A program made the position numbers and the translations under genes. Source: Oscillospiraceae bacterium (GTDB taxonomy: Bacteria; Bacillota; Clostridia; Oscillospirales; CAG-272). From it: a stretch of DNA of 64,000 bases. Below are positions 3,778-60,182 of the stretch, in pieces (position 1 is the stretch's first letter; every line of letters begins with the position of its first letter). The stretch covers positions 32,557 through 96,556 of the forward strand of contig SVRS01000004.1 in NCBI GenBank assembly GCA_015064695.1. The letters are read 5' to 3'. The notes under the pieces were generated by a model. That model did no database searches, was not told where the DNA came from, and saw nothing but the letters and a program-made list of their open reading frames with translations.

Positions 3778-5481
3778 ATGAAATTCACCGAAATGCCCTA
3801 CACCCGCCCCGACATGGAGGCTGTCAAGGCACAATCTGCCGCCCTCACCGCTCGCTTGAGCGAGGCCACCGACTACGCCGCCGCCAAGGTCGCATTCCTG
3901 GAATACCAGGAAGTCCAAAAGCACCTTCAGACCCTCTGCACCCTGGCCGAGGTGCGCCACTCCATCGACACCCGCGACGAGTTCTACGACGCCGAGGTCA
4001 AGTATATCAACGCCACCATGCCCGAGGTACAGGAGTACGCCCAGGCCTTCACCGCCGCCCTGCTGGAATCCCCCTTCCGCGCGGATTTTGCCGCAGAGTA
4101 CGGCGACCTCATGTTCGTCAACGCGGAGATCGCGCTGAAATCCTTCTCCCCTGAGATCATCCCCGAAATGCAGGCTGAAAACGATCTGACCATGGCCTAC
4201 GAAAAGCTGTTGGCCTCCGCGCAGATCCCCTTTGAGAACGGCGTCTATACCCTCTCCCAAATGACTCCCTTTATGTCCGACCCCGACGACAACCGCCGTC
4301 TGGCCGCCTGGAAGGCCAACGGTCAGTGGTACAAGGACAACCAGGCCGAGCTGGACCGCATTTACGACGAGCTGACCCACCTCCGGGACACCATGGGCAA
4401 GAAGCTGGGCTACGAGGGCTACACTACCCTGGGCTACTACCGCATGGGGCGCAACTGCTACACCGAGGCCGACGTAAAGAAGTTCCGCGCCGCCGTGGTA
4501 AAATATCTGGTTCCCGTGGCGGATGCCATCTACCGCGCTCAGGCCGAAAGATTGGGTAAGACCTACCCCATGAGCTACGCAGACAACGCCCTGATGTTCC
4601 GCACGGGGAATCCCCGTCCCTGCGGAAGCGCCGAGGATATTCTCAAGCAGGGCGATAAATTCTACGACGAGCTGTCCCCCGAAACCGCCGAGTTCTTCCG
4701 GATCATGCGTGAGGGAGAGCTTTTGGACGTTCTCTCCACCGAGGGCAAGCAGGGTGGCGGCTACTGCACCGGTATCCCCGACTACGAGGTGCCCTTCATC
4801 TTCGCCAACTTCAACGGCACCCAGGGTGACGTGGAGGTGGTGACCCACGAGGCGGGCCACGCCTTCGCCTGCTGGATGAACCGCGACCGCATTCCCCTGG
4901 ATTACATGTGGCCCTCCATGGAGGCCTGCGAGGTCCACTCCATGTCCATGGAATTCTTTGCCTGGCCTTGGGCTGAGGGATTCTTCGGGCAGGACACCCG
5001 CAAGTTCCTCTACAGCCACCTGGCGGGCGCTCTGACCTTCATCCCCTACGGAACTCTGGTGGATCACTTCCAGCACGAGGTGTATGCGAAGCCCCACATG
5101 ACCCCCGCACAGCGTCACGCCACCTGGAAGGAGCTTATGGGCGTATACATGCCCTGGGTCAAGCTGGACGGCGAGATTCCCTTCTACGCCGAGGGCGAGG
5201 GCTGGCAGAGACAGCACCATATTTACAGTAGTCCCTTCTACTACATCGACTACTGCCTGGCTCAGACCGTAGCTCTCCGCTTCTGGGCAATGATCCAAAA
5301 CGATATGCCCACCGCGTGGTCTCACTATATGGCCTACACCAAGGAGGGCGGCAGCAAGAGCTTCACCGATCTGCTTACCCATGCCGGTCTGGACACGCCC
5401 TTCGACGAGGCCTGCCTGCGCGCCGTCTGCGAGGAGGCCAACAAGTGGCTCTCCGAGTTTGATCTGGGCGGAATCGTCTGA
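3778..5481 (+). CDS. M3-family oligoendopeptidase (PepF-like zinc metallopeptidase)
   Basis: 567 aa with the HEAGHAF zinc motif followed downstream by EVHSMSMEF. Overall length and architecture fit M3B oligoendopeptidase F. Confidence 0.85.
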   Translation: MKFTEMPYTRPDMEAVKAQSAALTARLSEATDYAAAKVAFLEYQEVQKHLQTLCTLAEVRHSIDTRDEFYDAEVKYINATMPEVQEYAQAFTAALLESPFRADFAAEYGDLMFVNAEIALKSFSPEIIPEMQAENDLTMAYEKLLASAQIPFENGVYTLSQMTPFMSDPDDNRRLAAWKANGQWYKDNQAELDRIYDELTHLRDTMGKKLGYEGYTTLGYYRMGRNCYTEADVKKFRAAVVKYLVPVADAIYRAQAERLGKTYPMSYADNALMFRTGNPRPCGSAEDILKQGDKFYDELSPETAEFFRIMREGELLDVLSTEGKQGGGYCTGIPDYEVPFIFANFNGTQGDVEVVTHEAGHAFACWMNRDRIPLDYMWPSMEACEVHSMSMEFFAWPWAEGFFGQDTRKFLYSHLAGALTFIPYGTLVDHFQHEVYAKPHMTPAQRHATWKELMGVYMPWVKLDGEIPFYAEGEGWQRQHHIYSSPFYYIDYCLAQTVALRFWAMIQNDMPTAWSHYMAYTKEGGSKSFTDLLTHAGLDTPFDEACLRAVCEEANKWLSEFDLGGIV

Positions 5482-5513
5482 TCTGCAGGGGCAGGCTATA
5501 GCTTATACGTAAA

Positions 5514-5674
5514 GGGAACCTCTAAAAATTCATCGCATGGAGAATCGACGGAATCTTTTCCGTCATACTTCACAAAAATCCTTCGCGTAGACTCCACTAC
5601 GCGCGCGGACTTTTGTTGCGTCTGACAAAAAATCTTCTCGCCGCTCTCCGCACGCTGAATATTTAGAGGTCCCC
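5514..5674 (+). mobile_element. MITE-like 161-bp TIR element, copy A
   Basis: GGGAACCTCTAAAAATTC...GAATATTTAGAGGTCCCC. Flanked by TAAA on both sides. By eye it is identical to 59908..60068. Confidence 0.7.
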
Positions 5675-5681
5675 TAAAGAA

Positions 5682-6528: not shown

Positions 6529-8586
6529 ATGCATTGGTCAGAAGAAATCGCACAAAGAGTCATCGCCAGAAACCCCGACAAGGAGGAGTACGTCTGCGCC
6601 GCGGGCATAAGCCCCTCGGGCTCTGTTCATATCGGTAATTTCCGTGACATCGCCACCTCCCTGTTCGTCTGCAAGGCCATCGAGAAGCAGGGCAAGCGGG
6701 CCCGCCTTCTGTTCTCCTGGGACGACTTTGACCGTTGCCGCAAGATTCCCGCCAACGTTCAGGCTGCCGTGGGCGATGCCTACGACAAGTATATCGGTAC
6801 TCCCTACGTGGATATCCCCGACCCCTGGGGCTGCCACGAGAACTACGCCGAGCATTTCAAGGCCGAGTTCACCGAGTCCATGAAGAAGTTCGGCATCGAG
6901 ATGGACTACCGCCATCAGGGCAATATGTACCGCTCGGGTGCTTACACTCAGGCTATCATCGAGTCCCTCCGCAAGCGGGAGGAGATCTTCGAGATCCTGG
7001 ACTCCTTCAAGACCAAGGATATGACCAAGTCCGAGGAGGAACGCAAGGCCGAGCACGACGCCGAGAAGGCCAAGTATTCCCCCGTGTCGGTCTTCTGCCC
7101 CGAGTGCGGCACCGACTTCACCACCCTGGAGAACATCTCCGAGGACTGCACCGAGGCAGACTACACCTGCCGTTGCGGCTACCACGGACACATCAACTTC
7201 ACCGAGAACTTCAACTGCAAGCTGGGCTGGAAGATCGACTGGCCCATGCGCTGGAGACACGAGGGCGTAGACTTTGAGCCCGGCGGAAAGGATCACGCCG
7301 CTCCCACCGGCTCCTACTCCAACGCCAAGGTGATCTCCAAGAAGATCTTTGGCTACGAGCCTCCCCTGTTCCAGGGCTACGAGTTCATCGGCATCAAGGG
7401 TCTGGCGGGCAAGATGTCCTCTTCCTCTGGTCTGAACCTCACCCCCGATACCATGCTGAAGCTCTACGAGCCCGAGGTCATTCTGTGGCTCTACTCCAAG
7501 ACCGAGCCCACCAAGGCCTTTGACTTCTGCTTCGACGACGGCATTCTCCGTCAGTACTTTGAGTTCGACAAGATGTACGAGGACTACCGCGCAGGAAGAT
7601 GCAACGAGCGCGACGCCGCCATCATGTACAACTGCGACGTGGCGGGCCACGAGGTCAGCACTGTTCCCATGGGCCTGCTGGTTCAGCTGGGCTCCATCGT
7701 GGACTTCAACGTCCCCATGCTGGAGACGGTATTCGAGAAGATCGGCACGCCCTACACCGCCGAGCAGTTCATGGGCAGACTGGACCGCGCCAAGTACTGG
7801 CTGGAGCAGTGCGCTCCCGAGCAGGTCAACCGTCTGCGTGAAACCCGTAACTTTGAGGTCTACAACACCCTCTCCGACGAGGAAAAGCGTGAGATCGCCC
7901 TTCTCCACGACTATCTGGCCGCAGGCGGCTACGATCTGGATGCGCTGAACGCCGAGCTGTACGCCATTCCCAAGCGAGTCTTTGGGGAGGACAAGCCCGA
8001 CAAGGAGCTGAAGGGTCTGCAGGGCAACTTCTTCAAGACGGTCTACAAGCTGCTCATCGACAAGGAGCGGGGCCCCCGTCTGTACCTGTTCCTGTATGCC
8101 ATCGATCCCGCCCGCTACGTGGGTCTTCTGGACTTCTCCTACGAGCAGACCGCCGAGGAGATGGCAGCCGATCAGGCCGTAGCCGACGCTGAGGCCGCCG
8201 CGAATACCCCCGTGGAGAAGGTCTACGGCGAGCCCGATCCCGTACAGCCCATTTCCACCGACATGGTGACCATGGACGACTTTGGTAAGATGGATATCCG
8301 CGTCTGCAAGATCGTGAAGGTGCAGGAGATCCGCAAGTCTCACTCCTGCTACAAGCTGACCCTGAACGACGGCATCGGCGAGCGGGTCATCGTGTCGAGC
8401 ATCAAGCACGACTACACCATCGACGAGCTGGTGGGCAAGAAGATCATTGTTCTGGCCAACCTCACCCCCACCCGTATCACGGGTGTCACCTCCAACGGTA
8501 TGCTCCTGGCCGCCACCAACAACGCCTGCGGCTGTCAGGTCATCTTCGTGGACGAGAGAGTGCCCGAGGGTACCAGATTGCACTAA
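6529..8586 (+). CDS. lysK: Class I lysine--tRNA ligase fused to a C-terminal OB-fold tRNA-binding domain
   Basis: N-terminus MHWSEEIAQRV...GISPSGSVHIGNFRD (HIGH-type motif) and GKMSSSSG (KMSKS-type) identify class I LysRS. The last ~110 aa, DFGKMDIRVCKIVKVQEIRKSHSCYKLTLNDG...LANLTPTRITGVTSNGMLLAA, have the Trbp111/CsaA/MetRS-C type tRNA-binding signature. Confidence 0.85.
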   Translation: MHWSEEIAQRVIARNPDKEEYVCAAGISPSGSVHIGNFRDIATSLFVCKAIEKQGKRARLLFSWDDFDRCRKIPANVQAAVGDAYDKYIGTPYVDIPDPWGCHENYAEHFKAEFTESMKKFGIEMDYRHQGNMYRSGAYTQAIIESLRKREEIFEILDSFKTKDMTKSEEERKAEHDAEKAKYSPVSVFCPECGTDFTTLENISEDCTEADYTCRCGYHGHINFTENFNCKLGWKIDWPMRWRHEGVDFEPGGKDHAAPTGSYSNAKVISKKIFGYEPPLFQGYEFIGIKGLAGKMSSSSGLNLTPDTMLKLYEPEVILWLYSKTEPTKAFDFCFDDGILRQYFEFDKMYEDYRAGRCNERDAAIMYNCDVAGHEVSTVPMGLLVQLGSIVDFNVPMLETVFEKIGTPYTAEQFMGRLDRAKYWLEQCAPEQVNRLRETRNFEVYNTLSDEEKREIALLHDYLAAGGYDLDALNAELYAIPKRVFGEDKPDKELKGLQGNFFKTVYKLLIDKERGPRLYLFLYAIDPARYVGLLDFSYEQTAEEMAADQAVADAEAAANTPVEKVYGEPDPVQPISTDMVTMDDFGKMDIRVCKIVKVQEIRKSHSCYKLTLNDGIGERVIVSSIKHDYTIDELVGKKIIVLANLTPTRITGVTSNGMLLAATNNACGCQVIFVDERVPEGTRLH

Positions 8587-10071: not shown

Positions 10072-10145
10072 TTGCTAAAGTTTTTGGGAATCCAAAACCC
10101 TTTTTTCAAAAAGGGTTTTGGCCGCCGGAGGCTCGCTCCCCCCGC
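10072..10145 (-). repeat. Hairpin-plus-tail intergenic repeat R2 (inverted)
   Basis: The reverse complement reads GGGGGAGCGAGCCTCCGGCGGC + CCAAAACCCTTTTT-GA-AAAAAGGGTTTTGG + ATTCCCAAAAACTTT. It lies between the ygiQ promoter and the start codon. Confidence 0.6.
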
Positions 10146-13269: not shown

Positions 13270-13394
13270 TTCAAAAAATCCCTTCGCGCAGAGACGTCTA
13301 CGCGAAGGGATTTTTTCATGCTCACGGGAAAGGCTGACGAAAAAACCTTTTTCGCGAGCCGTTTTCCGTGCGTTCAATATGCAGAGATTCCCCT
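13270..13394 (-). repeat. Degenerate MITE-family relic F
   Basis: CGCGAAGGGATTTTTTCATGCTCACGGGAAAGG...CCGTTTTCCGTGCGTTCAATATGCAGAGATTCCCC parallels the central hairpin and right half of copies B and C. Its hairpin AAATCCCTTCGCG...CGCGAAGGGATTT also looks like the holA terminator. Confidence 0.4.
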
Positions 13395-13448: not shown

Positions 13449-13520
13449 AGAGCGTGCCTCCGGCGGCTTAAACCCTTCTTTGAAGAAGGGTTTAAGAATC
13501 CCAAGAACTTCAAAAAAGAA
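13449..13520 (+). repeat. Hairpin-plus-tail intergenic repeat R3
   Basis: AGAGCGTGCCTCCGGCGG + CTTAAACCCTTC-TTTGAA-GAAGGGTTTAAG (13467..13496) + AATCCCAAGAACTTCAAAAAAG. Confidence 0.6.
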
Positions 13521-19393: not shown

Positions 19394-21361
19394 ATGAACA
19401 AAGGCTCTGACACCTACACCAACGAACAACTCAAAATCCTCCGCCTGCTGGCCGCCGAATACCCCTCCATCGCCCTGGCAGGGGCAACCTTGGTGAATCT
19501 CAACGCTCTCTCCAATCTGCCCAAGGGCACCGAGCATTTCATGAGCGACCTCCACGGCGAGGCCGAGGCCTTTGAGCATATCCTCAACAACGGCTCCGGG
19601 GTCATCCGCGAGAAGGTAGACACGGTTTTCTACCGTACCATGGGCGAGGAGGAGCGGCGCACCCTCTGTACCCTCATCTACTACCCCGTCGAGAAGATGG
19701 AGGAGCTGCGGGCGGGCGGTGTGATCACCTCCGATTGGTACCGCATCACCTTGTACCGTCTGGTGGACCTTTCCCGCTCGGTGGCCTCCAAATACACCCG
19801 CGAGAAGGTGCGGGAGGCTCTCCCCGCCGATTACCGCTACATCATCGACGAGCTGCTCCACACCTCAGGGGAGGAGCACGACAAGCAGGAATACTACCGC
19901 AACATCATCGACACGGTGATCGAGGTCGGCCAGGCAGAGGCCTTCATCGTGGCTCTCTGCAACCTCATCAAGCGCATGGCGGTGGACCGTCTTCACGTGG
20001 TGGGGGACATTTACGACCGAGGCAATCATGCCGACCGCATTCTGGATATGCTCCGCGAGCATCATCAGGTGGACATTCAGTGGGGCAACCACGACATTGT
20101 CTGGATGGGTGCCGCCGCGGGGTCTGCGGCTTGCGTGGCCACGGTGCTTAACTCGGCGTTGCAGTACAATACCCTATCCATCGTGGAGAACACCTACGGC
20201 ATCTCCCTGCGGGACCTCATCGGCTTTGCCCAGGAGACCTACCGCGACTCCACCTGGTTCATGCCCCGCAACCCCGACGACGCCTACTACGTCAAAAGCA
20301 GCATGGACAATCTGGCCAAGGCCCACAAGGCCATCGCCATCATTCTGTTCAAGCTGGAGGGCCAGCTCATCCGCCGTCATCCCGAGTTCGGCATGGAGGG
20401 GCGGTTGGTGCTGGAGGCTATTGACTACGAGGCCAACACCGTGACCCTGGGCGGGGTGGCCTACCCCCTCAACGACGGGCACTTCCCCACCATTGATCCT
20501 GCGGATCCTTACCGACTGACCGATGCCGAGTCCTCACTGATCGGGTCGCTGACGAATGCCTTCCGCCACAGCAGAGCCCTCCGCCGTCATGTGGAATTCC
20601 TTTACAATGACGGTTCTCTTTACAAGGTCTGCAACGGCAATCTCCTGTTCCACGGCTGTATTCCCATGACCGCCGCAGGAGAATTTGACAGCGTCGTCTG
20701 CATGGACGGTGTGGCCCGCAGCGGCCGCGCCTACATGGATTGGTGCGACAAAACTGCCCGCGCGGCCTTCTATGAGCACAGTCAGGATGCGCTGGATTTC
20801 ATGTACTATCTCTGGTGCGGCCGCCGCTCTCCTCTGTTCGGGCGGGAGCGGATGACCACCTTTGAGCGGTATTTCGTGGCCGACAAGGGGACCTGGACCG
20901 AGCAAAAGAATCCCTACTACGGGTTGGTGGAGGACTATGAGGCCGCCGCGGCCATCCTCCGTGAGTTTGGACTGGACGAGTCCACGGGGCACATCATCAA
21001 CGGCCACGTACCCGTCCGCGCCGCCATCGGGGAGCATCCCGTGAAGGCTCGGGGCCGCTACATCCGCATCGACGGCGGATTCTGCCGCGCCTATCACAAC
21101 CACACGGGCATTGCGGGATACACCCTTATCTACTCCTCCCGCGGTCTGCGCCTGGTCTCCCATAGCCCCTTTGAGGGCAAGGAGGCGGCTGTCCGTCAGA
21201 ACCGCGACATTCTCGCCGCTGACGACGTCGTCTTTGAGATGATGCCCCGCCGCATGCTGGTCCGCGACACCGACCAAGGCAAACGCATCATCGAGCGTAT
21301 GGAGGACCTCCGCGCCCTGCTCGCGGCATACAGGGAGGGTGTGGTATCGCCCGAGGTGTGA
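19394..21361 (+). CDS. fbp: Fructose-1,6-bisphosphatase class 3
   Basis: 655 aa with LRLLAAEYPSI...LPKGTEHFMSDLHGE...HVVGDIYDRG...WGNHD, the Firmicutes Fbp class 3 signature. Confidence 0.9.
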   Translation: MNKGSDTYTNEQLKILRLLAAEYPSIALAGATLVNLNALSNLPKGTEHFMSDLHGEAEAFEHILNNGSGVIREKVDTVFYRTMGEEERRTLCTLIYYPVEKMEELRAGGVITSDWYRITLYRLVDLSRSVASKYTREKVREALPADYRYIIDELLHTSGEEHDKQEYYRNIIDTVIEVGQAEAFIVALCNLIKRMAVDRLHVVGDIYDRGNHADRILDMLREHHQVDIQWGNHDIVWMGAAAGSAACVATVLNSALQYNTLSIVENTYGISLRDLIGFAQETYRDSTWFMPRNPDDAYYVKSSMDNLAKAHKAIAIILFKLEGQLIRRHPEFGMEGRLVLEAIDYEANTVTLGGVAYPLNDGHFPTIDPADPYRLTDAESSLIGSLTNAFRHSRALRRHVEFLYNDGSLYKVCNGNLLFHGCIPMTAAGEFDSVVCMDGVARSGRAYMDWCDKTARAAFYEHSQDALDFMYYLWCGRRSPLFGRERMTTFERYFVADKGTWTEQKNPYYGLVEDYEAAAAILREFGLDESTGHIINGHVPVRAAIGEHPVKARGRYIRIDGGFCRAYHNHTGIAGYTLIYSSRGLRLVSHSPFEGKEAAVRQNRDILAADDVVFEMMPRRMLVRDTDQGKRIIERMEDLRALLAAYREGVVSPEV

Positions 21362-21447
21362 GGGGGGGAGAACGAGGGGCTCTGCCCCCGGCCCCCGCTT
21401 AAGGGGCTTTTGAAAAAGCCCCTTAAGAATCCCAAAAACCTTCAAAT
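21362..21447 (+). repeat. Hairpin-plus-tail intergenic repeat R4
   Basis: GGGGGGGAGAACGAGGGGCTCTGCCCCCGGCCCCCG + CTTAAGGGGCTTT-TGAA-AAAGCCCCTTAAG (21398..21427) + AATCCCAAAAACCTTCAAATGG. It starts immediately after the fbp stop. Confidence 0.6.
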
Positions 21448-21591: not shown

Positions 21592-22848
21592 TCAATCCTT
21601 GATCTGCTCAAAATAGAACTCCTCAAACCGCAGAATATCCTCCCCGTCCCCACGGAAGACGAAGCAGAGGTCGTGGGTGCCGAAGGTATTCTCCAGGCGG
21701 CAGGGGATGTCGTCGAAGCCGCCGAAATTGTAGTTTCCGACGTTTTCCACGTTGAGGTGGCCCAGGATCGGGCCAAAGGGGCTTCCCTCACGGATCTCCA
21801 CCGAGCATTTTCCTCTGCAGGCCAGACGGACGAACATCAGGGCGTTGGGATTCATGCCGCTGACCTTGGGGTAGTACAGGTAAGAGCCGTTCTTGATTCC
21901 TCTCAGCTCAAAGCCGGAGAGGTTCTCCTTCTTGGTGATCCCGTCGGAGGCGGCGAAGTACCACTCGCCCTTGACCGATGGCCAGGAGGCATCGTAGTGG
22001 CCCACGCCTGCCCGCTGGATGAACTCGTCGATGGTGATGTCTCCGTTGTCCTTGAAGTGGGCGTAGAGCATTTTTGTGGTGCGGTAGTAGCGGTTCATGC
22101 GGTCCTCGCCCCAGTTCTCGGGGATGCCGTAAGCAAAGTAGGTCTGGTTGTGGAAGGTAAAGAAATTGCCGTGATCCACATAGGCCTCGTTGCAGAAGGA
22201 GCCACGGTAGGTGTAGGGGCCGTAGACACTGTCCGATGTGGCAAAGAAGGCGCGATGACTACCCAGATAATACTTCCCGTTCCACTTGTTCAGGTTTGGG
22301 GCATCGTTACCGTCCCAGGAGTTGAGGATCTCCACGGGGCGAGGCTCCTCGGCCAAAGAGATCATGTCCTCGTTCAGGCGAGCGATGTAGTACTGCTTGC
22401 CGCCTACGGTATAGCCAAAGACGATGTAGGGGGTGTGGTTTTCGTCGTCGTCGATGAAGATGGCAGGATCGTAGGAGGGGGTATCCACAAAGCCCTCGGG
22501 GAGCAGGGGCTTGCCCAGGGCATCCTTGTAGGGGCCGCCCGGGCCGTTTTCGCTGACAGCTACTCCTGTGCAGGATTGGCCGCGGGAAAAGTACAGGTAG
22601 TACTTCCCGTTCCGCTCAGCGGTATCGGTAGCGTAGCAGTCGTTGACCTTACCGAGGAAGGTCTCCTCGGGGTAGAAGGTGTATTCCAGCTTCCAGTTGA
22701 GCAGATCGTCGCTGGAGAAAATGCGCCAATCGTCCATGCGGAAGCCCTTATTGTCGGGGCTTCGGTCATGGGTGGTGAACATATAGACCTTTCCGTTATA
22801 GACACGGATATGGGGGTCACAGACCCCTTGCTTGGGGATGATTCTCAT
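21592..22848 (-). CDS. Glycoside hydrolase family 43 protein (copy a)
   Basis: MRIIPKQGVCDPHIRVYNGKVYMFTTHD...DDWRIFSSDDLLNWK... shows the five-bladed propeller GH43 N-terminus. The C-terminal ~120 aa form a beta-sandwich-like domain. Paralogue of 25241..26497. Confidence 0.85.
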   Translation of the reverse strand: MRIIPKQGVCDPHIRVYNGKVYMFTTHDRSPDNKGFRMDDWRIFSSDDLLNWKLEYTFYPEETFLGKVNDCYATDTAERNGKYYLYFSRGQSCTGVAVSENGPGGPYKDALGKPLLPEGFVDTPSYDPAIFIDDDENHTPYIVFGYTVGGKQYYIARLNEDMISLAEEPRPVEILNSWDGNDAPNLNKWNGKYYLGSHRAFFATSDSVYGPYTYRGSFCNEAYVDHGNFFTFHNQTYFAYGIPENWGEDRMNRYYRTTKMLYAHFKDNGDITIDEFIQRAGVGHYDASWPSVKGEWYFAASDGITKKENLSGFELRGIKNGSYLYYPKVSGMNPNALMFVRLACRGKCSVEIREGSPFGPILGHLNVENVGNYNFGGFDDIPCRLENTFGTHDLCFVFRGDGEDILRFEEFYFEQIKD

Positions 22849-25240: not shown

Positions 25241-26497
25241 TCAGTTGGGCACGCGCTCAAAGCGGAAATCTTCAAAGGTGAACAGATCCTTCCCTTCGCC
25301 GCGGAAGACGAAGCAAAGGCTGTGGGTTCCGTGGGTATTGGTCAAGGGGATGGTGAACTCACGGGCATCTCCATTTTGAATGGCGCATTGGGGCTCAGCC
25401 TTGATACAGCCCAGAACGGGGCCGAAGGGGCTTCCCTCCCGCACCTCGATCTGACAGGTCTGATGCTCGCAGGAGCCACGGAGGATGAGCTTGGTATTCT
25501 GCCGCATCCCGTGGACATTCTGATAGCACAGGTAGGCACCGTCCGTGATGCCCCTCAGCTCAAAGCCCGAGGCGTTTTCCTTCTTAATGACACCGTCCGA
25601 GGCGGCGAAGTACCACTCGCCCTTGATGACGGGCCAGCTCGCATCGTACTGACCCACGCCCACATCCTGAATGAACTCGTCGATGCAGATATCTCCGTTG
25701 TCCTTGTAGTGGGCGTAGAGGATCTTGGTGGCGCGGAAGAAGGGGTCGATCTCTGCACTCTCTCCATAGTTGGCGGGGACGCCGTAGGCGAAGTAGGTCT
25801 GGTTATGGAAATCGAACACGCAGGGATGATCCACGTTATTGCAATCGTTGCAGAACTTGCCGCGGTAGGTGTAGGGACCGTAGATATTGTCCGCAGTGGA
25901 GTACCAGGCACGGTGGGTCAACAGGTAGTACACGCCGTTGTGCTTCCATACCCAGGGAGCATCCGACCACCAAGGGCCATGCTCAATGGGACGAGGCTCC
26001 TCGGCCAGGGACACCATATCCTCGTTCAACCGAGCGATATAGTATTTCTTGTCGAAGCAGGTGTAGCCCCACAGGATGTAGGGTGTTCCGGCCTCGTCGT
26101 CGTCGATGAACACCGAAGGATCGTAGCTGGGGGTATCCGCCAGGCCTGCGGGGAGGATGGGCTTACCCAGGGCATCCTTGTAGGGGCCCGCGGGATGGTC
26201 GGCCACCGCCACGCCGGTGCAGGTCTGGCCCTGGGAGAAGTACAGGTAGTACTTCCCGTTCCGCTCGGCGGAGTCGGTGGCGTAGCAATCCTCACACTTA
26301 CCGAGAAAGGTATCCTCGGGGCGAAGGGTGTATTCCTCCTTCCAGTTGAGCAGATCATCGGTAGAATATACCTTCCAGTCGTCCATGCGGAAAATGGAGT
26401 TTCCGGGGGAACGGTCATGGGTGGCAAACATATAAACTCTCCCGTTATACACGTGCATATGGGGATCGCAGATCCCCGAATCGGGTAGAATATGCAT
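25241..26497 (-). CDS. Glycoside hydrolase family 43 protein (copy b)
   Basis: MHILPDSGICDPHMHVYNGRVYMFATHD...DDWKVYSTDDLLNWK. It is collinear with copy a at the same length (418 aa) once the start is trimmed to the ATG at 26495-26497. Confidence 0.85.
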   Translation of the reverse strand: MHILPDSGICDPHMHVYNGRVYMFATHDRSPGNSIFRMDDWKVYSTDDLLNWKEEYTLRPEDTFLGKCEDCYATDSAERNGKYYLYFSQGQTCTGVAVADHPAGPYKDALGKPILPAGLADTPSYDPSVFIDDDEAGTPYILWGYTCFDKKYYIARLNEDMVSLAEEPRPIEHGPWWSDAPWVWKHNGVYYLLTHRAWYSTADNIYGPYTYRGKFCNDCNNVDHPCVFDFHNQTYFAYGVPANYGESAEIDPFFRATKILYAHYKDNGDICIDEFIQDVGVGQYDASWPVIKGEWYFAASDGVIKKENASGFELRGITDGAYLCYQNVHGMRQNTKLILRGSCEHQTCQIEVREGSPFGPVLGCIKAEPQCAIQNGDAREFTIPLTNTHGTHSLCFVFRGEGKDLFTFEDFRFERVPN

Positions 26498-26539
26498 AGG
26501 AATCCTTTCTGTAAAGCTTGTCAAAAGCCTTCAAAGCCG

Positions 26540-31007: not shown

Positions 31008-31127
31008 AGAATAATTCTCCTTATTACATAAATTTTAATGAATTTATTATAACACAGAACCTATTAAAATGCAATAGGGTAGGAAATTTTTTTCATTTTC
31101 CTACCCGAAAAATTTCAGATCGTATAA

Positions 31128-31288
31128 GGGAGCCTCTAAATATTCAGCGTGCAGAGAGCGGCGAGAAGATTTTTTGTCAGACGAAACAAAAATCCGCGCG
31201 CAGAGTTTATCCTCTGCGAAGGGTTTTTGTAAAGTATGACGGAAAAGATTCCGCCGATTCTCCGTGCGATGAATTTTTAGAGGTTCCC
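31128..31288 (-). mobile_element. MITE-like 161-bp TIR element, copy B (inverted, diverged)
   Basis: GGGAGCCTCTAAATATTC...GAATTTTTAGAGGTTCCC. Flanked by ATAA on both sides. Located between the GH78-like stop and a terminator hairpin. Confidence 0.7.
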
Positions 31289-31306
31289 ATAAGAGATTTG
31301 CCGCCG

Positions 31307-36153: not shown

Positions 36154-36167
36154 AGGGTTCCTTTCGT

Positions 36168-36260
36168 GGGAGGTGCGGAGAGCGAGGGGCTCTGCCCCTG
36201 TCCCTCGCTTAAGGAACCTTTTGCAAAAGGTTCCTTAAGAATCCTCTAAAACTTTCAAAT
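36168..36260 (+). repeat. Hairpin-plus-tail intergenic repeat R5
   Basis: GGGAGGTGCGGAGAGCGAGGGGCTCTGCCCCTGTCCCTCG + CTTAAGGAACCTTTT-G-CAAAAGGTTCCTTAAG (36208..36238) + AATCCTCTAAAACTTTCAAAT. The 5' part is nearly identical to R4. Confidence 0.6.
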
Positions 36261-38301: not shown

Positions 38302-38647
38302 ATCAAAAGCGATGAGCGGAAACAAGTAGGCCGCCATGACCCGCACAGAGAACCGTCGGTTGGTGCGAGACGGAAGGGACATTTCGGCTGAATACATTCC
38401 GGGAGCTGTGTTCTCGAAGCGTCTCTCCGATCAAGAGATGCCCAGGGAACAACGGGGTTCGCCCGTTACAGCGATGAGGCATACAAGGTCTGCGGCGGCG
38501 AGGCGGCTCGTACACCCGCTCCGCGCAAGCGCTTTCCCCACGTGCCCGACGAGGTTCCCCCCTGTGAGGGGAGGAATAAATTGAGGTGGTACCGCGGTTA
38601 TAATCATACCCGCCCTCTTTCCGTCATACGGAAAAGGGGCGGTTTTT
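38302..38647 (+). promoter_or_regulatory. T-box riboswitch leader, candidate Tyr (UAC) specifier, with intrinsic terminator
   Basis: The conserved T-box sequence AGGTGGTACCGCGG lies at 38584..38597 and overlaps the 5' arm of the terminator CCGCCCTCTTTCCG-TCATA-CGGAAAAGGGGCGG-TTTTT (38609..38647). I folded Stem I by hand: GA/K-turn GCGATGAG, lower stem CGGAA/TTCCG, 5' specifier-loop side ACAAGTA, stem GGCCG/CGGCT, AGAGA bulge, distal loop GGTTGGTGCGA, and 3' specifier-loop side GAA-TAC-A (codon at 38393..38395). Confidence 0.75.
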
Positions 38648-38723
38648 GTTTTGCTATAGATCTTACGGCAAGACAGACTCCCCTTTCCGACACTTTCATT
38701 CTTTTTCGGAGGTCTCTGTCATC

Positions 38724-40349
38724 ATGTTTGTCAAGCTCGCTATGATCGTCGTATTCTTCGCCATCACCATTCTGGTGGGCATCCTCTCCGCCCGCTCTGC
38801 CAAGGGCGTGGACGGCTTCGTCCTGGGCGGCCGCTCGGTGGGTCCCTGGCTCACAGCCTTCTCCTTCGGTACATCCTACTTCTCCGCCGTCATTTTCATC
38901 GGCTACGCCGGCCGCTTCGGCTGGAACTTCGGCCTTGCCTCCACCTGGGTGGGTCTGGGCAACGCCTTCATCGGCTCTCTCCTGGCCTGGATGCTCCTGG
39001 GTCGCCGTACCCGCGTCATGACCCAGCACATCGGCAGCCGCACCATGCCCGATTTCTTCGGCCTTCGCTACAAGTCCAAGGCTCTCCGCCTGGTAGCCGC
39101 CTGCATCGTATTCATCTTCCTTATTCCCTACACCGCTTCCCTGTTCAACGGTCTCGCTCAGCTCTTCTCGGCCTCCTTTGACCTGCCCTACTGGGGCTGG
39201 GTACTCATCATGGCGGTCCTGACGGGTATTTACGTCATCGTGGGCGGCTACATGGGCTCTGCCGTCAATAACTTCATTCAGGGTCTTATCATGCTGGTGG
39301 GTATCGTGGCGGTCATCGCTGCTGTGCTTAACGATAACGGCGGTCTCATGGAGGCCATCGCCAAGCTCTCGGAGGGCTCGGCCACCACCGCCGCGGGCAC
39401 CGAGTTCAAGGGTGCCTTCACCTCCTTCCTGGGCCCCAATCCTCTCCAGCTTCTGGGTGTCGTGGTCCTGACCTCCCTGGGCACCTGGGGTCTGCCCCAG
39501 ATGGTGGGTAAGTTCTACGCCATCAAGGACGAGAGTGCCATCAAGAAGGGCACCATCATCTCCACCTTCTTCGGTCTCATCGTGGCCGGCGGGTGCTACT
39601 TTCTGGGTGGCTTCGGCCGTCTCTACGCCGACAGCATCACCATGAACGGCGCCGGCACCGCACCCGCTTCCTTCGATGCCATCATTCCCACCATGCTGAA
39701 TGCCGTGGAAAATTCCATGGGCGCAGGCGGTGCCTGGCTCATTGGTCTGGTGCTGATTTTGGTGCTGGCCGCCTCCATGTCCACCCTGTCCTCCTTGGCC
39801 ATGACCTCGGCCTCCACCATCACCCTGGATCTGGTAGCTCCCCTGTCGAAGAAGTCTAAGAGCGAGAAGGCCAATATGCTCATCATGCGAGTCCTTCTGG
39901 CGGTATCCATCATCATCGCCGCCGCCATCGCCATCCTGGTGGTGACGAACAAGGAAATGGCCTCCAAGCTCTATATCTCTGACCTCATGGGCATCTCCTG
40001 GGGCGCTCTGGCCGGATGCTTCCTGGCTCCCTTCCTGTACGGTCTGTACTGGAAGAAGACCACCAAGGCCGCCGTCTGGGCCAGCTTTGCCACGGGTCTT
40101 GGCATCACCCTCACCCAGTTCATTCTGAACGCCGTCCTCAAGGTAAGCTTTGAAAACCCCGTTCTGAGCTACTTCTGCGGCTCCTCCATCAACGCAGGTA
40201 TGCTGGCCATGCTGGTGGGTCTGATCATGGTTCCCGTCGTCTCTCTGCTGACCCAAAAGACCGCCCCCGCAGGCACCGACGAGGTGTTCGCCTGCTACGA
40301 CCGCATGGTCACGGTTCCTGTGGACACGGCACTGGAAAAGGGAGAATAA
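38724..40349 (+). CDS. Sodium:solute symporter (SSS) family transporter, T-box controlled
   Basis: Highly hydrophobic, multi-helix N-terminus ...GFVLGGRSVGPWLTAFSFGTSYFSAVIFIGYAG... typical of the SSS (PutP/PanF-like) family. It lies directly downstream of the T-box terminator. Confidence 0.8.
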   Translation: MFVKLAMIVVFFAITILVGILSARSAKGVDGFVLGGRSVGPWLTAFSFGTSYFSAVIFIGYAGRFGWNFGLASTWVGLGNAFIGSLLAWMLLGRRTRVMTQHIGSRTMPDFFGLRYKSKALRLVAACIVFIFLIPYTASLFNGLAQLFSASFDLPYWGWVLIMAVLTGIYVIVGGYMGSAVNNFIQGLIMLVGIVAVIAAVLNDNGGLMEAIAKLSEGSATTAAGTEFKGAFTSFLGPNPLQLLGVVVLTSLGTWGLPQMVGKFYAIKDESAIKKGTIISTFFGLIVAGGCYFLGGFGRLYADSITMNGAGTAPASFDAIIPTMLNAVENSMGAGGAWLIGLVLILVLAASMSTLSSLAMTSASTITLDLVAPLSKKSKSEKANMLIMRVLLAVSIIIAAAIAILVVTNKEMASKLYISDLMGISWGALAGCFLAPFLYGLYWKKTTKAAVWASFATGLGITLTQFILNAVLKVSFENPVLSYFCGSSINAGMLAMLVGLIMVPVVSLLTQKTAPAGTDEVFACYDRMVTVPVDTALEKGE

Positions 40350-43792: not shown

Positions 43793-43884
43793 GGAGAGGT
43801 GGCTGAGCTGGTCTAAGGCGCACGACTGGAAATCGTGTTTGGGCTAATACCCCAACGAGGGTTCGAATCCCTCCCTCTCCGCCA
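43793..43884 (+). tRNA. tRNA-Ser (anticodon GGA), encoded CCA
   Basis: Hand-folded cloverleaf. Acceptor GGAGAGG/CCTCTCC, anticodon stem CACGA/TCGTG with loop CTGGAAA, long variable arm (TTTGGGCTAATACCCCAAC), T arm GAGGG-TTCGAAT-CCCTC, then GCCA. Confidence 0.9.
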
Positions 43885-53252: not shown

Positions 53253-53444
53253 GGGAGCCTCTAAATATTCTGCGTGCGGTGAGAGCCGAGTGAGCTCGGC
53301 GGCGAGAAGATTTTTCGTCAGCCCGCCCTGCGGGCGCTAAACAAAAAAATCGCGCGCAGGGTTTATCCTCTGCGAAGAATTTTTGTAACGAATGACGGAA
53401 AAGATTCCGCCGATTCGCCGTGCGAAGAATTTTTAGAGGTTCCC
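53253..53444 (-). mobile_element. MITE-like TIR element, copy C (192 bp, with two extra internal hairpins)
   Basis: It has the same ends as copy B. Extra palindromes GCCGAGTGAGCTCGGC and GCCCGCCCTGCGGGCGC are inserted. Flanks are TAAA and TAAG. It lies between the CPBP stop (53453) and the niaR start (53218). Confidence 0.65.
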
Positions 53445-59300: not shown

Positions 59301-59584
59301 AAATGGTCATCAGGGGTTGCGGCCTGGCCGATGGCATCCAAAATGAGACACGCCCCCAAGAAAATGGTAAGAATGGCCAGGATCACCGGCACAAACAGCA
59401 ATCCAAAGTCACTTTTCTTCTTGATTTTGGCCTCCATCTGGGTAGGATCCTTCCCTTTTCCGTGGGCATCCTTCTTTTTGGACGGAGCCTTGGATGCTAC
59501 CGTGGCAGTCTTAACGGAAGCGGATGACGGCTTTTTCGCCGACACCGCAGGCTTTTTCTGATTACGTCTATCTGTTTCGGACAT
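56384..59584 (-). CDS. ftsK: DNA translocase FtsK/SpoIIIE
   Basis: N-terminal TM block, long acidic/basic low-complexity linker, motor domain (LLVAGTTGSGKSVCIN..., IIIDELADLMM) and C-terminal gamma winged helix (SALQRALNLGYGRAAKIIDRMEELGFVGP). ATG at 59582-59584 with AAAGGAGGAAACC. Confidence 0.9.
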   Translation of the reverse strand: MSETDRRNQKKPAVSAKKPSSASVKTATVASKAPSKKKDAHGKGKDPTQMEAKIKKKSDFGLLFVPVILAILTIFLGACLILDAIGQAATPDDHLMGWVGYYTCYLLFGCFGWAAYLIPFLLINMMVFWRRRYTEGRIPVKTFLSVFTLILLAAVIHVFDCALDTTGELAQTLSFVTLFKTGATFASGGILGGYPGYLLYMGLRLPGTILVAVLVLPPLLMYLVGVSPVAVAIKIGKAMKKSIQDSAEERAVRRAERAEAKANEEYTEEAEDEIPDGEDDEYKENESYGDESARSSDRKTDRRSDNRRVEGEDSRQGRNKKKSSARDTYADATEESSGTYDDGMGAAEDNLVVNSRTGEVLGTERSRGSKSVLRRNDKRDPAPFDEDGNNYEPEGLPFYDTPAEVIPEPAPERPRTEARSETREKRSAPVYTASRTQAETLRTEAVEPEDFADDEDMSAETMEVGYDDDFEDTPAPKVKYEVITDNGETPLRTQTGKNDPYATVRILKSETAAVAEAGLSEEEVVISSARDASEDGEGDEDMPPREYVFPPIDLLTKGSNRYEANEEEIAENTQILREVLESFRIGVREISCSCGPTITRFEVKPDSGVRVRSIANLVDDIAMGMAKAGVRIEAPIPGKAAVGIEVPNAEPSTVYFRNILETPEFRNHKSRIAACLGADVSGRPVILDINKMPHLLVAGTTGSGKSVCINSIIMSILYKAKPDEVKLILIDPKKVEFAVYRDLPHLYCPIISDPKKAAGALNSAVNEMERRFELIEEVGVRNIAGYNEVTADDPARPYMPQMVIIIDELADLMMTASNEVETAICRLAQKARAAGMHLILGTQRPSTDVITGLIKANVPSRIAFTVTQSVDSRIIIDTVGAEKLIGRGDMLYSPVGTTKPLRVQGTFVSDGEVERVVTFLKENNERGEFDESFTRQIEIEAAKCAAGKKKGGAEQMDIDDFSGLGGGGGGGRKDNEDPKFWEALEVAAGKDKIGTSALQRALNLGYGRAAKIIDRMEELGFVGPDPGTKQGRKVLITKQEYLEYRANGLPGNGGSEGGDEGDFDDL

Positions 59585-59654
59585 GGTTTCCTCCTTTGGG
59601 CGCATAAATGTATCGTAAGAGCGAGGACTCCGGCAACGGCACACCTCGCGGAAC

Positions 59655-59690
59655 AGTATTCCTTTATTATAACACAAAAGCTCCGCAATT
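59655..59690 (-). promoter_or_regulatory. Sigma-A type promoter for ftsK (minus strand)
   Basis: The minus strand reads TTGCAA-17 nt-TATAAT with a TGTG extended -10 (plus-strand text TTATTATAACACAAAAGCTCCGCAATTGCAA). Confidence 0.4.
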
Positions 59691-59779
59691 GCAAGGGCTT
59701 TGGGGAAGTTTTTTGTGATAAATGCCATATAAAAAACGATCGGATACGTTCAAGGCGAAGGGGGCCGCAAAGAACCTCG

Positions 59780-59865
59780 CGCGTCCCACCCGGCGTGAAG
59801 GGATTTTGTGTAACGAAGCGAAATAATTCCGTCAATGATCCTTGCGACGATTTTTTGAGGCCTCC
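59780..59865 (-). repeat. Degenerate half-copy of the MITE family (relic E), inverted next to copy D
   Basis: GAAGGGATTTTGTGTAACGAAGCGAAATAATTCCGTCAATGATCCTTGCGACGATTTTTTGAGGCCTCC aligns with the right half of copy B (GAAGGGTTTTTGTAAAGTATGACGGAAAAGATTCCGCCGATTCTCCGTGCGATGAATTTTTAGAGGTTCCC). Confidence 0.45.
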
Positions 59866-59907
59866 TGCAACAAGCAGAATCGCCCCAAAGCCGACCGTAT
59901 TTGTTTT

Positions 59908-60068
59908 GGGAACCTCTAAAAATTCATCGCATGGAGAATCGACGGAATCTTTTCCGTCATACTTCACAAAAATCCTTCGCGTAGACTCCACTACGCGCGC
60001 GGACTTTTGTTGCGTCTGACAAAAAATCTTCTCGCCGCTCTCCGCACGCTGAATATTTAGAGGTCCCC
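59908..60068 (+). mobile_element. MITE-like 161-bp TIR element, copy D
   Basis: Same sequence as copy A by eye. Flanked by TTTT on both sides. Located between the ftsK promoter region and the DJ-1 gene promoter. Confidence 0.7.
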
Positions 60069-60118
60069 TTTTCTCCAAAAACGTCTTCCCCGTGCTACAC
60101 AAAGCGCCCCGAAAAGCC

Positions 60119-60147
60119 TTGACAGAAGCGGCTATTCGTGGTATAAT
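60119..60147 (+). promoter_or_regulatory. Sigma-A type promoter for the DJ-1/MTHFS/CPBP genes
   Basis: TTGACA (60119..60124), 17-nt spacer, TATAAT (60142..60147). It lies just outside MITE copy D. Confidence 0.45.
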
Positions 60148-60182
60148 GAGTAATAAATTTACAGACATACGGAGGTTTTTCC

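Follow-up and report, generated by a model that had tools for sequence, protein, structure and literature searches.

A short palindromic MITE with IS5-type ends and insertions that differ between near-identical strains of an uncultured Oscillospiraceae bacterium

The DNA analysed here is a stretch of 64,000 nt from an Oscillospiraceae bacterium (Clostridia; assembly GCA_015064695.1, contig SVRS01000004.1, positions 32,557 to 96,556), referred to below as the window. Four copies of one element are found in it, three of 161 bp (A, B and D) and one of 192 bp (C). Copy A, located at 5514-5674 on the plus strand by repeat comparison and by an end-pattern scan, sits between convergent genes and beside a terminator hairpin. 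Copy D (59908-60068, plus strand) lies between divergent genes for an FtsK-like and a DJ-1/PfpI protein, 51 nt upstream of the -35 hexamer of a perfect consensus promoter. Copies B (31128-31288) and C (53253-53444) are both on the minus strand and between genes that are themselves co-oriented on the minus strand: GH78-like and WbsX-like genes for B, and Rce1-like and NadR/NiaR-like genes for C, which ends 34 nt ahead of the start codon of the NadR/NiaR-like gene. The sole long ORF over any copy is 59497-60168 on the minus strand, which overlaps D; it was not called in any related contig, and strains without the element miss 165 bp of it.

A search of the whole window against Rfam 15 at the gathering threshold returned only a T-box leader and a tRNA, with no match on any copy of the element, and at E<=1 the single match around copy A was outside the element and at chance level. 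A known structured RNA family was dropped as a candidate for this reason. The T-box leader (38303-38620, 100 bits) lies upstream of the gene at 38646-40349, and the tRNA gene is at 43793-43881; a related metagenome contig starts at about the end of this tRNA gene. The window also holds a second family of intergenic repeats of about 60-90 nt (21356-21442, 36166-36254, 13450-13511 and, in reverse, 10078-10138), which consist of a AAGGGGCTTTTGAAAAAGCCCCTT-type palindrome followed by AAGAATCCCAAAAAC and have no Rfam match at the gathering threshold. In addition, a pair of paralogous genes on the minus strand (21592-22848 and 25241-26524) was found with 71-82% DNA identity and a spacing of 3.65 kb.

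Comparison of the four copies revealed that A and D are 100% identical over 162 nt as aligned by the repeat finder, the last base being the first T of each flanking 4-mer. Copy B is about 90% identical to A. Copy C is the most diverged of the four, with an identity to A of 71-80% depending on how its two insertions are counted; besides substitutions it carries these two internal insertions of 15-16 nt, GC-rich hairpins private to C, at 53285-53300 and 53321-53337. On the element strand the two micro-hairpins read GCCGAGCTCACTCGGC and GCGCCCGCAGGGCGGGC, and a third, GCCCACGAAGTGGGC, is present in copy C of sister strains (L256, about 1810-1835, and L258). The idea that the micro-hairpins are repeated mobile units was rejected, as they have no further copies within the window; template switching is one conceivable source.

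Terminal inverted repeats of 18 nt are found at all eight termini. In copy A the left end is GGGAACCTCTAAAAATTC (5514-5531, plus strand) and the right end is the reverse complement of GGGGACCTCTAAATATTC (5657-5674). The two ends within one copy differ at two positions, GGGAACCTCTAAAAATTC being paired with GGGGACCTCTAAATATTC in A and D or with GGGAGCCTCTAAATATTC in B and C. The degenerate pattern GGGNNCCTCTAAANATTC has eight matches in the window at zero mismatches, all at the eight element ends; the shuffle control gave 1.77 matches with up to three mismatches allowed. Just outside the ends, a perfect 4-bp duplication flanks three of the four copies: TAAA/TAAA for A (5510-5513 and 5675-5678), TTTT/TTTT for D (59904-59907 and 60069-60072) and ATAA/ATAA for B (31124-31127 and 31289-31292). 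The flanks of copy C read TAAA/TAAG, with three of four bases in agreement.

The first-pass annotation, made from the letters of the window, had described copy A with a base-for-base second copy at 59908-60068, two diverged copies in the opposite orientation, an 18-bp imperfect terminal inverted repeat and matching AT-rich 4-mers around each copy, TAAA/TAAG in the case of C. The present comparison agrees with it on each of these points. Its further statements, that all copies are intergenic without a credible ORF and that the window holds no transposase, also held, the latter for the IS5 type: the ORF overlapping D is the uncalled one mentioned above, and tblastn gave no IS5-type match in the window.

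Sister strains were found through contigs from several metagenomes that encode exactly the proteins flanking the copies. The D site is occupied in L120, which is identical to the window, and empty in L119 (ENA ERZ27317018) and L124, where the sequence runs ...CCGTATTTG-TTTT-CTCCAAAAACG... with TTTT present once. The A site is occupied across the whole element in L265 and L270, and the contigs L273 and L274 break off within copy A. It is empty in L266 (ERZ27317018), L267 and L272, which read ...GGGGGATTTC-TTTA-CGTATAAGC..., that is, a single TTTA where the window reads TTTA-element-TTTA; an equally short gene spacing of 108 nt is found at this site in L268, L269 and L271. Over 1.8 kb, the A-site flank of L266 matches the window at 99.3% identity. 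All three contigs with the protein next to copy B also have copy B itself, and copy C likewise occurs in every contig with its neighbouring protein, sister strains included. At the copy C locus, no element is seen in the 128 nt upstream of an orthologue with 85% protein identity (L264).

A and D do not differ at any position, and a strain that matches the window at 99.3% in the A-site flank has neither of them, so the last jumps were very recent. A and D are very recent insertions in the lineage of this strain, and B and C are older. The spread of identities among the copies, at 100%, about 90% and 71-80%, suggests long-lasting activity of the family. Precise excision, rather than lack of insertion, could in principle be the source of an empty site. 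The annotation had read the flanking 4-mers as target-site duplications and the identical copies as a sign of recent mobility, and had proposed a search for empty sites carrying the 4-mer singly. Such sites now exist for both identical copies, in sister strains with about 99% identity in the flanks, and the empty alleles carry the 4-mer exactly once, which bears out both readings at A and D.

Some of the contigs recovered in this way show further features. Beside the empty A site, L266 (2000-2816, ERZ27317018) and several other strains carry an insertion of about 817 bp that is missing from the window, at a place equivalent to about 5337-5514; a methyltransferase-like protein of 266 aa is encoded in it, and a 3' segment of the peptidase M3 gene, about 130-180 bp long, is duplicated at its flanks. 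Two contigs are apparently chimeric through the element. In L125 (1-304), the left flank is that of copy A and the right flank that of copy D. In L260 (380-790), the right flank is that of copy C and the left flank is a different one, with a left-arm deletion between AAAAATTCTTCGCA repeats; these joins are due either to mis-joining by the repeat during assembly or to real recombination. Several other contigs begin or stop inside the element. The element thus breaks and mis-joins metagenome assemblies, and it could serve as a strain marker.

The end motif was then used to scan one genome per species, and at least 118 loci were obtained. Among the matches listed, these are spread over Gallionellaceae, Nitrosomonas, Nitrotoga, Spirochaetia, Clostridia, Fibrobacter, Planctomycetota, Victivallis and others. 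Most of the matches listed are short inverted pairs 110-210 bp apart, and a few are elements of 1.27-1.35 kb.

In these longer cases GGGnnCCTCTAAAnATTC bounds full-length elements of other bacteria (1267-1345 bp) with one long ORF. An IS5-family DDE transposase is encoded by the elements in L072, L075, L028, L162, L198, L245, L141, L165 and L135, and further full-length elements were found in metagenome contigs and on a Cereibacter plasmid. The L072 transposase has the Pfam domains DDE_Tnp_1 and DUF772 and scores 281 bits on NCBIfam NF033581 (transpos_IS5_4, IS5 family transposase; cut-off 140). Its identity is 42% to a Bacteroides fragilis transposase with an IS1169-family annotation and, across 90% of its length, about 25% to the transposase of IS5/ISKpn26. 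The ends of the IS1169-annotated copy, GAGTTCTATAAATT and GAGTTCTATCAATTC, have the TCTAnnAATT core in common with the ends studied here. Both ends were located in eight of the ten full-length elements examined, and only the left end in L028 and L168. Perfect flanking 4-mers are present in L072 (ATAA), L162 (ATTA), L141 (ATAT) and L135 (TGCG); those of L245 agree up to the contig edge, and those of L075, L198 and L165 are imperfect. The insertion sequence with matching ends that the annotation had recommended looking for was thus found, in other organisms, as a member of the IS5 family that duplicates 4 bp of its target. When the IS5-family transposase was used as a protein query, more than 7,800 relatives came up, which did not point to the partner. 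One full IS5-family element lies on a predicted viral contig (L278, about 7146-8400), and its transposase is 48% identical to that of L072.

Between the window element and the full-length elements found, only the terminal 18-22 nt match, with no subterminal sequence in common. By tblastn with the IS5 transposase, there was no match in the Clostridia loci among the at least 118 genome loci, as in the window. A scan for the left end of this particular subfamily gave no match in the metagenome or viral contig collections. A generic right-end scan of the metagenomes yielded 120 loci, six of them with full IS5 elements, and the window-type interior is absent from these six.

A total of 69 short elements with these ends were examined, comprising the copies of the window and those from the at least 118 loci of the genome scan, and 40 of the 69 have a perfect 4-bp flanking duplication, versus 4.6 on average and at most 12 when the flanks are permuted. 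Shifted registers gave zero or one match, and no duplication reaches 5 or 6 bp. The duplications are AT-rich and roughly of the form T-W-A-A (TAAA in 9, TTAA in 6, ATAA in 4, and others). IS5 itself makes 4-bp duplications at YTAR (PMC5009759). The window 4-mers TAAA, TTTT and ATAA do not follow this motif, and among the duplications as a whole only TTAA, CTAA and similar ones fit it; the failure of the strict YTAR rule places the ends in a clade apart from IS5 proper and still inside the IS5 family.

The annotation had also called for a hunt for copies elsewhere, and related ones were found. L087, from a Clostridia MAG, is 78% identical to the window element over 161 bp and is the only interior match among the loci listed. 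L290, a predicted viral contig, carries at 2164-2219 a derivative of 56 bp, which has the two end variants in common with the window element and lies within a TTTA/TTTA duplication; its source is a JGI sample that also contains the organism of the window. The elements of other phyla have the terminal 18-22 nt in common, and their interiors are 30-45% identical after alignment, that is, essentially unrelated. For this reason common descent was rejected as the meaning of the equal 161-bp length seen in Clostridia, Fibrobacter and Planctomycetota. Most of the 69 short elements are hairpins over their whole length, of unrelated sequence. An 18-nt IS5-type end common to hairpins with unrelated interiors in many phyla suggests that such MITEs have been born repeatedly and independently.

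A hairpin MITE of 141 bp, which has the same ends and AT-rich duplications of 4 bp, recurs in Gallionellaceae, Nitrosomonas, Nitrotoga and related Betaproteobacteria (L003, L013, L016, L018, L027, L041, L046, L067 and others), often several times within 8 kb. A limited literature search on MITEs, IS5 and Nitrosomonas found no description of it.

Taken together, the window element is very probably a MITE with the recognition ends of an IS5 clade related to IS1169, mobilised in trans at 4-bp staggered cuts. It is short and non-coding, with terminal inverted repeats, a duplication of fixed length, dispersed copies and polymorphic insertions whose empty sites are exact; its ends are common to full-length IS5-family DDE elements, as is the 4-bp duplication. 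Under this reading, an IS5-family DDE transposase made elsewhere in the genome or on a visiting element would bind the two 18-nt ends and excise or copy the 161-bp unit, which would then integrate into AT-rich DNA, roughly T-W-A-A, where the strands are cut with a 4-bp stagger; repair of the stagger would leave the 4-bp duplication. We infer a matching active transposase in this genome and a cut-and-paste chemistry.

The family may instead be dead in this organism by now, its transposase lost or only ever transient on a phage or plasmid, so that the polymorphism at A and D would be the trace of a past burst. The partner IS was not found in the window, in the fetched Clostridia loci or in the metagenome and viral scans for the subfamily, and relatives do occur on predicted viral contigs, namely the 56-bp mini-element of L290 and the full IS5 element of L278. 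We nevertheless consider this unlikely, given the complete identity of A and D with their joint absence from so close a strain, and given the graded divergence of the copies, which implies long-lasting activity.

Folding, which the annotation had put forward as a check, revealed that the whole element forms one long and very stable hairpin, with folding energies of -61.6 kcal/mol (z -8.0) for the forward and -88.7 kcal/mol (z -10.7) for the reverse strand. The reverse strand folds better by 20-27 kcal/mol in all four variants, with 5-8 G-U pairs versus 1-3 on the forward strand; the better fold arises because G-U pairs of the reverse strand are A-C mismatches on the forward strand. Double compensatory changes are found at 9 of 66 pairs among A, B, C and L087, and two of them fall in the apical stem (GCGTAG/CTACGC versus GCAGAG/CTCTGC), which such changes preserve in B, C and L087. 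This apical stem-loop (5584-5603, minus strand; 59978-59997 in copy D) has a GC-rich stem of 7 bp and is followed by AAGGATTTTT, which makes it terminator-like. The core as a whole approximates an A-tract, a GC stem and a T-tract, and was scored as terminator-like on the reverse strand; the T-run begins 5 nt past the stem, which is poor for a terminator. Elsewhere in the window, at 13274-13314, lies another palindrome shaped like a terminator, the inverted repeat AAAAATCCCTTCGCG...CGCGAAGGGATTTT, which shows 76% complementarity to the MITE's central core.

These features of the fold are in keeping with an RNA-level effect, yet they are typical of palindromic MITEs too. They could be taken to mean that a former MITE now serves the host, as a bidirectional or reverse-strand terminator or as a hairpin that stabilises transcripts or is targeted by an RNase, with its fold under selection. 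The stability of the hairpin on both strands, the better reverse fold with its excess of G-U pairs, the compensatory changes among just four sequences, the terminator-like core and the likeness to the inverted repeat at 13274-13314 would all fit. However, near-identical strains differ in whether they have A and D, which are hence dispensable, and the variants share ancestry, so that the G-U bias does not amount to four independent observations and the 8:2 split is weak alone. Palindromy is, moreover, common among the MITEs with these ends examined here and may reflect their origin or mode of transposition, and the late T-run again speaks against a terminator. Given the common origin of the variants and the fact that strains can do without A and D, we treat a host function as a minority possibility, and a rather small one. 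It is a bolder and distinctly improbable proposal that the hairpin of this subfamily is maintained by selection and not just by descent, that its insertions act as portable terminator or RNA-structure modules and that one IS5 clade has seeded such modules independently in many phyla; if it were true, new insertions would rewire the transcription of neighbouring genes.

REP and BIME sequences are imperfect palindromes of 20-40 nt, associated with RAYT genes and without target duplication. That the window element is a repeat of this sort, spread by a RAYT/IS200-type enzyme or by recombination rather than by a DDE transposase and only coincidentally like IS5 at its ends, would suit a palindromic intergenic repeat with no transposase nearby, but is extremely improbable in view of the exact 18-nt motif that bounds full-length IS5-family elements in several phyla, the precise 4-bp duplications, the single 4-mer at empty sites and the 161-bp length.

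The reading as an IS5-derived MITE can be set beside known systems. Within the IS5 family, the element has the same type of end, with the TCTAnnAATT core, as IS1169 of Bacteroides fragilis, and IS5/ISKpn26 is more distant; the 4-bp target duplication and the AT-rich non-coding targets are further points of likeness. It differs from the members of this family in its length of 161 bp, in having no coding capacity and in its T-W-A-A-like targets, which are not strictly YTAR.

Among small intergenic repeats, Correia/NEMIS of Neisseria, RUP of Streptococcus pneumoniae and ERIC of enterobacteria are about 100-160 bp long, with inverted repeats and hairpins, and are polymorphic between strains. Correia elements duplicate TA, and Correia, RUP and ERIC all have documented effects on transcription or RNA processing. 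The window element resembles them in size, ends, hairpin and polymorphism, although the sequences and the parent IS families are unrelated.

A parallel in logic is provided by BrickBuilt, MITE293 and MITE700 of Porphyromonas gingivalis, which are non-coding and whose terminal repeats are identical to the ends of IS5-family elements or within 1 nt of them (PMC4596501). These MITEs have no transposase remnant, and identical ends were also reported in another phylum, in ISNme1 of Neisseria (PMC4596501). As in the window element, IS5-family ends enclose an interior that does not match the parent (PMC4596501). The BrickBuilt-type MITEs differ in having GAGACCTTTGCAAAA-type ends, and BrickBuilt contains a minisatellite and makes variable duplications (PMC4596501), whereas the window element folds over its whole length as a plain hairpin and has a clean duplication of 4 bp. 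A limited literature search found no description of the present end sequence or of MITEs with these ends. The window element is of an ordinary kind already known, an IS5-derived MITE that would not surprise a specialist. It offers a clean case of a recently active MITE in uncultured gut Clostridia, with occupied and empty alleles segregating in natural populations, and the family of the transposase that would drive it can be named as IS5.
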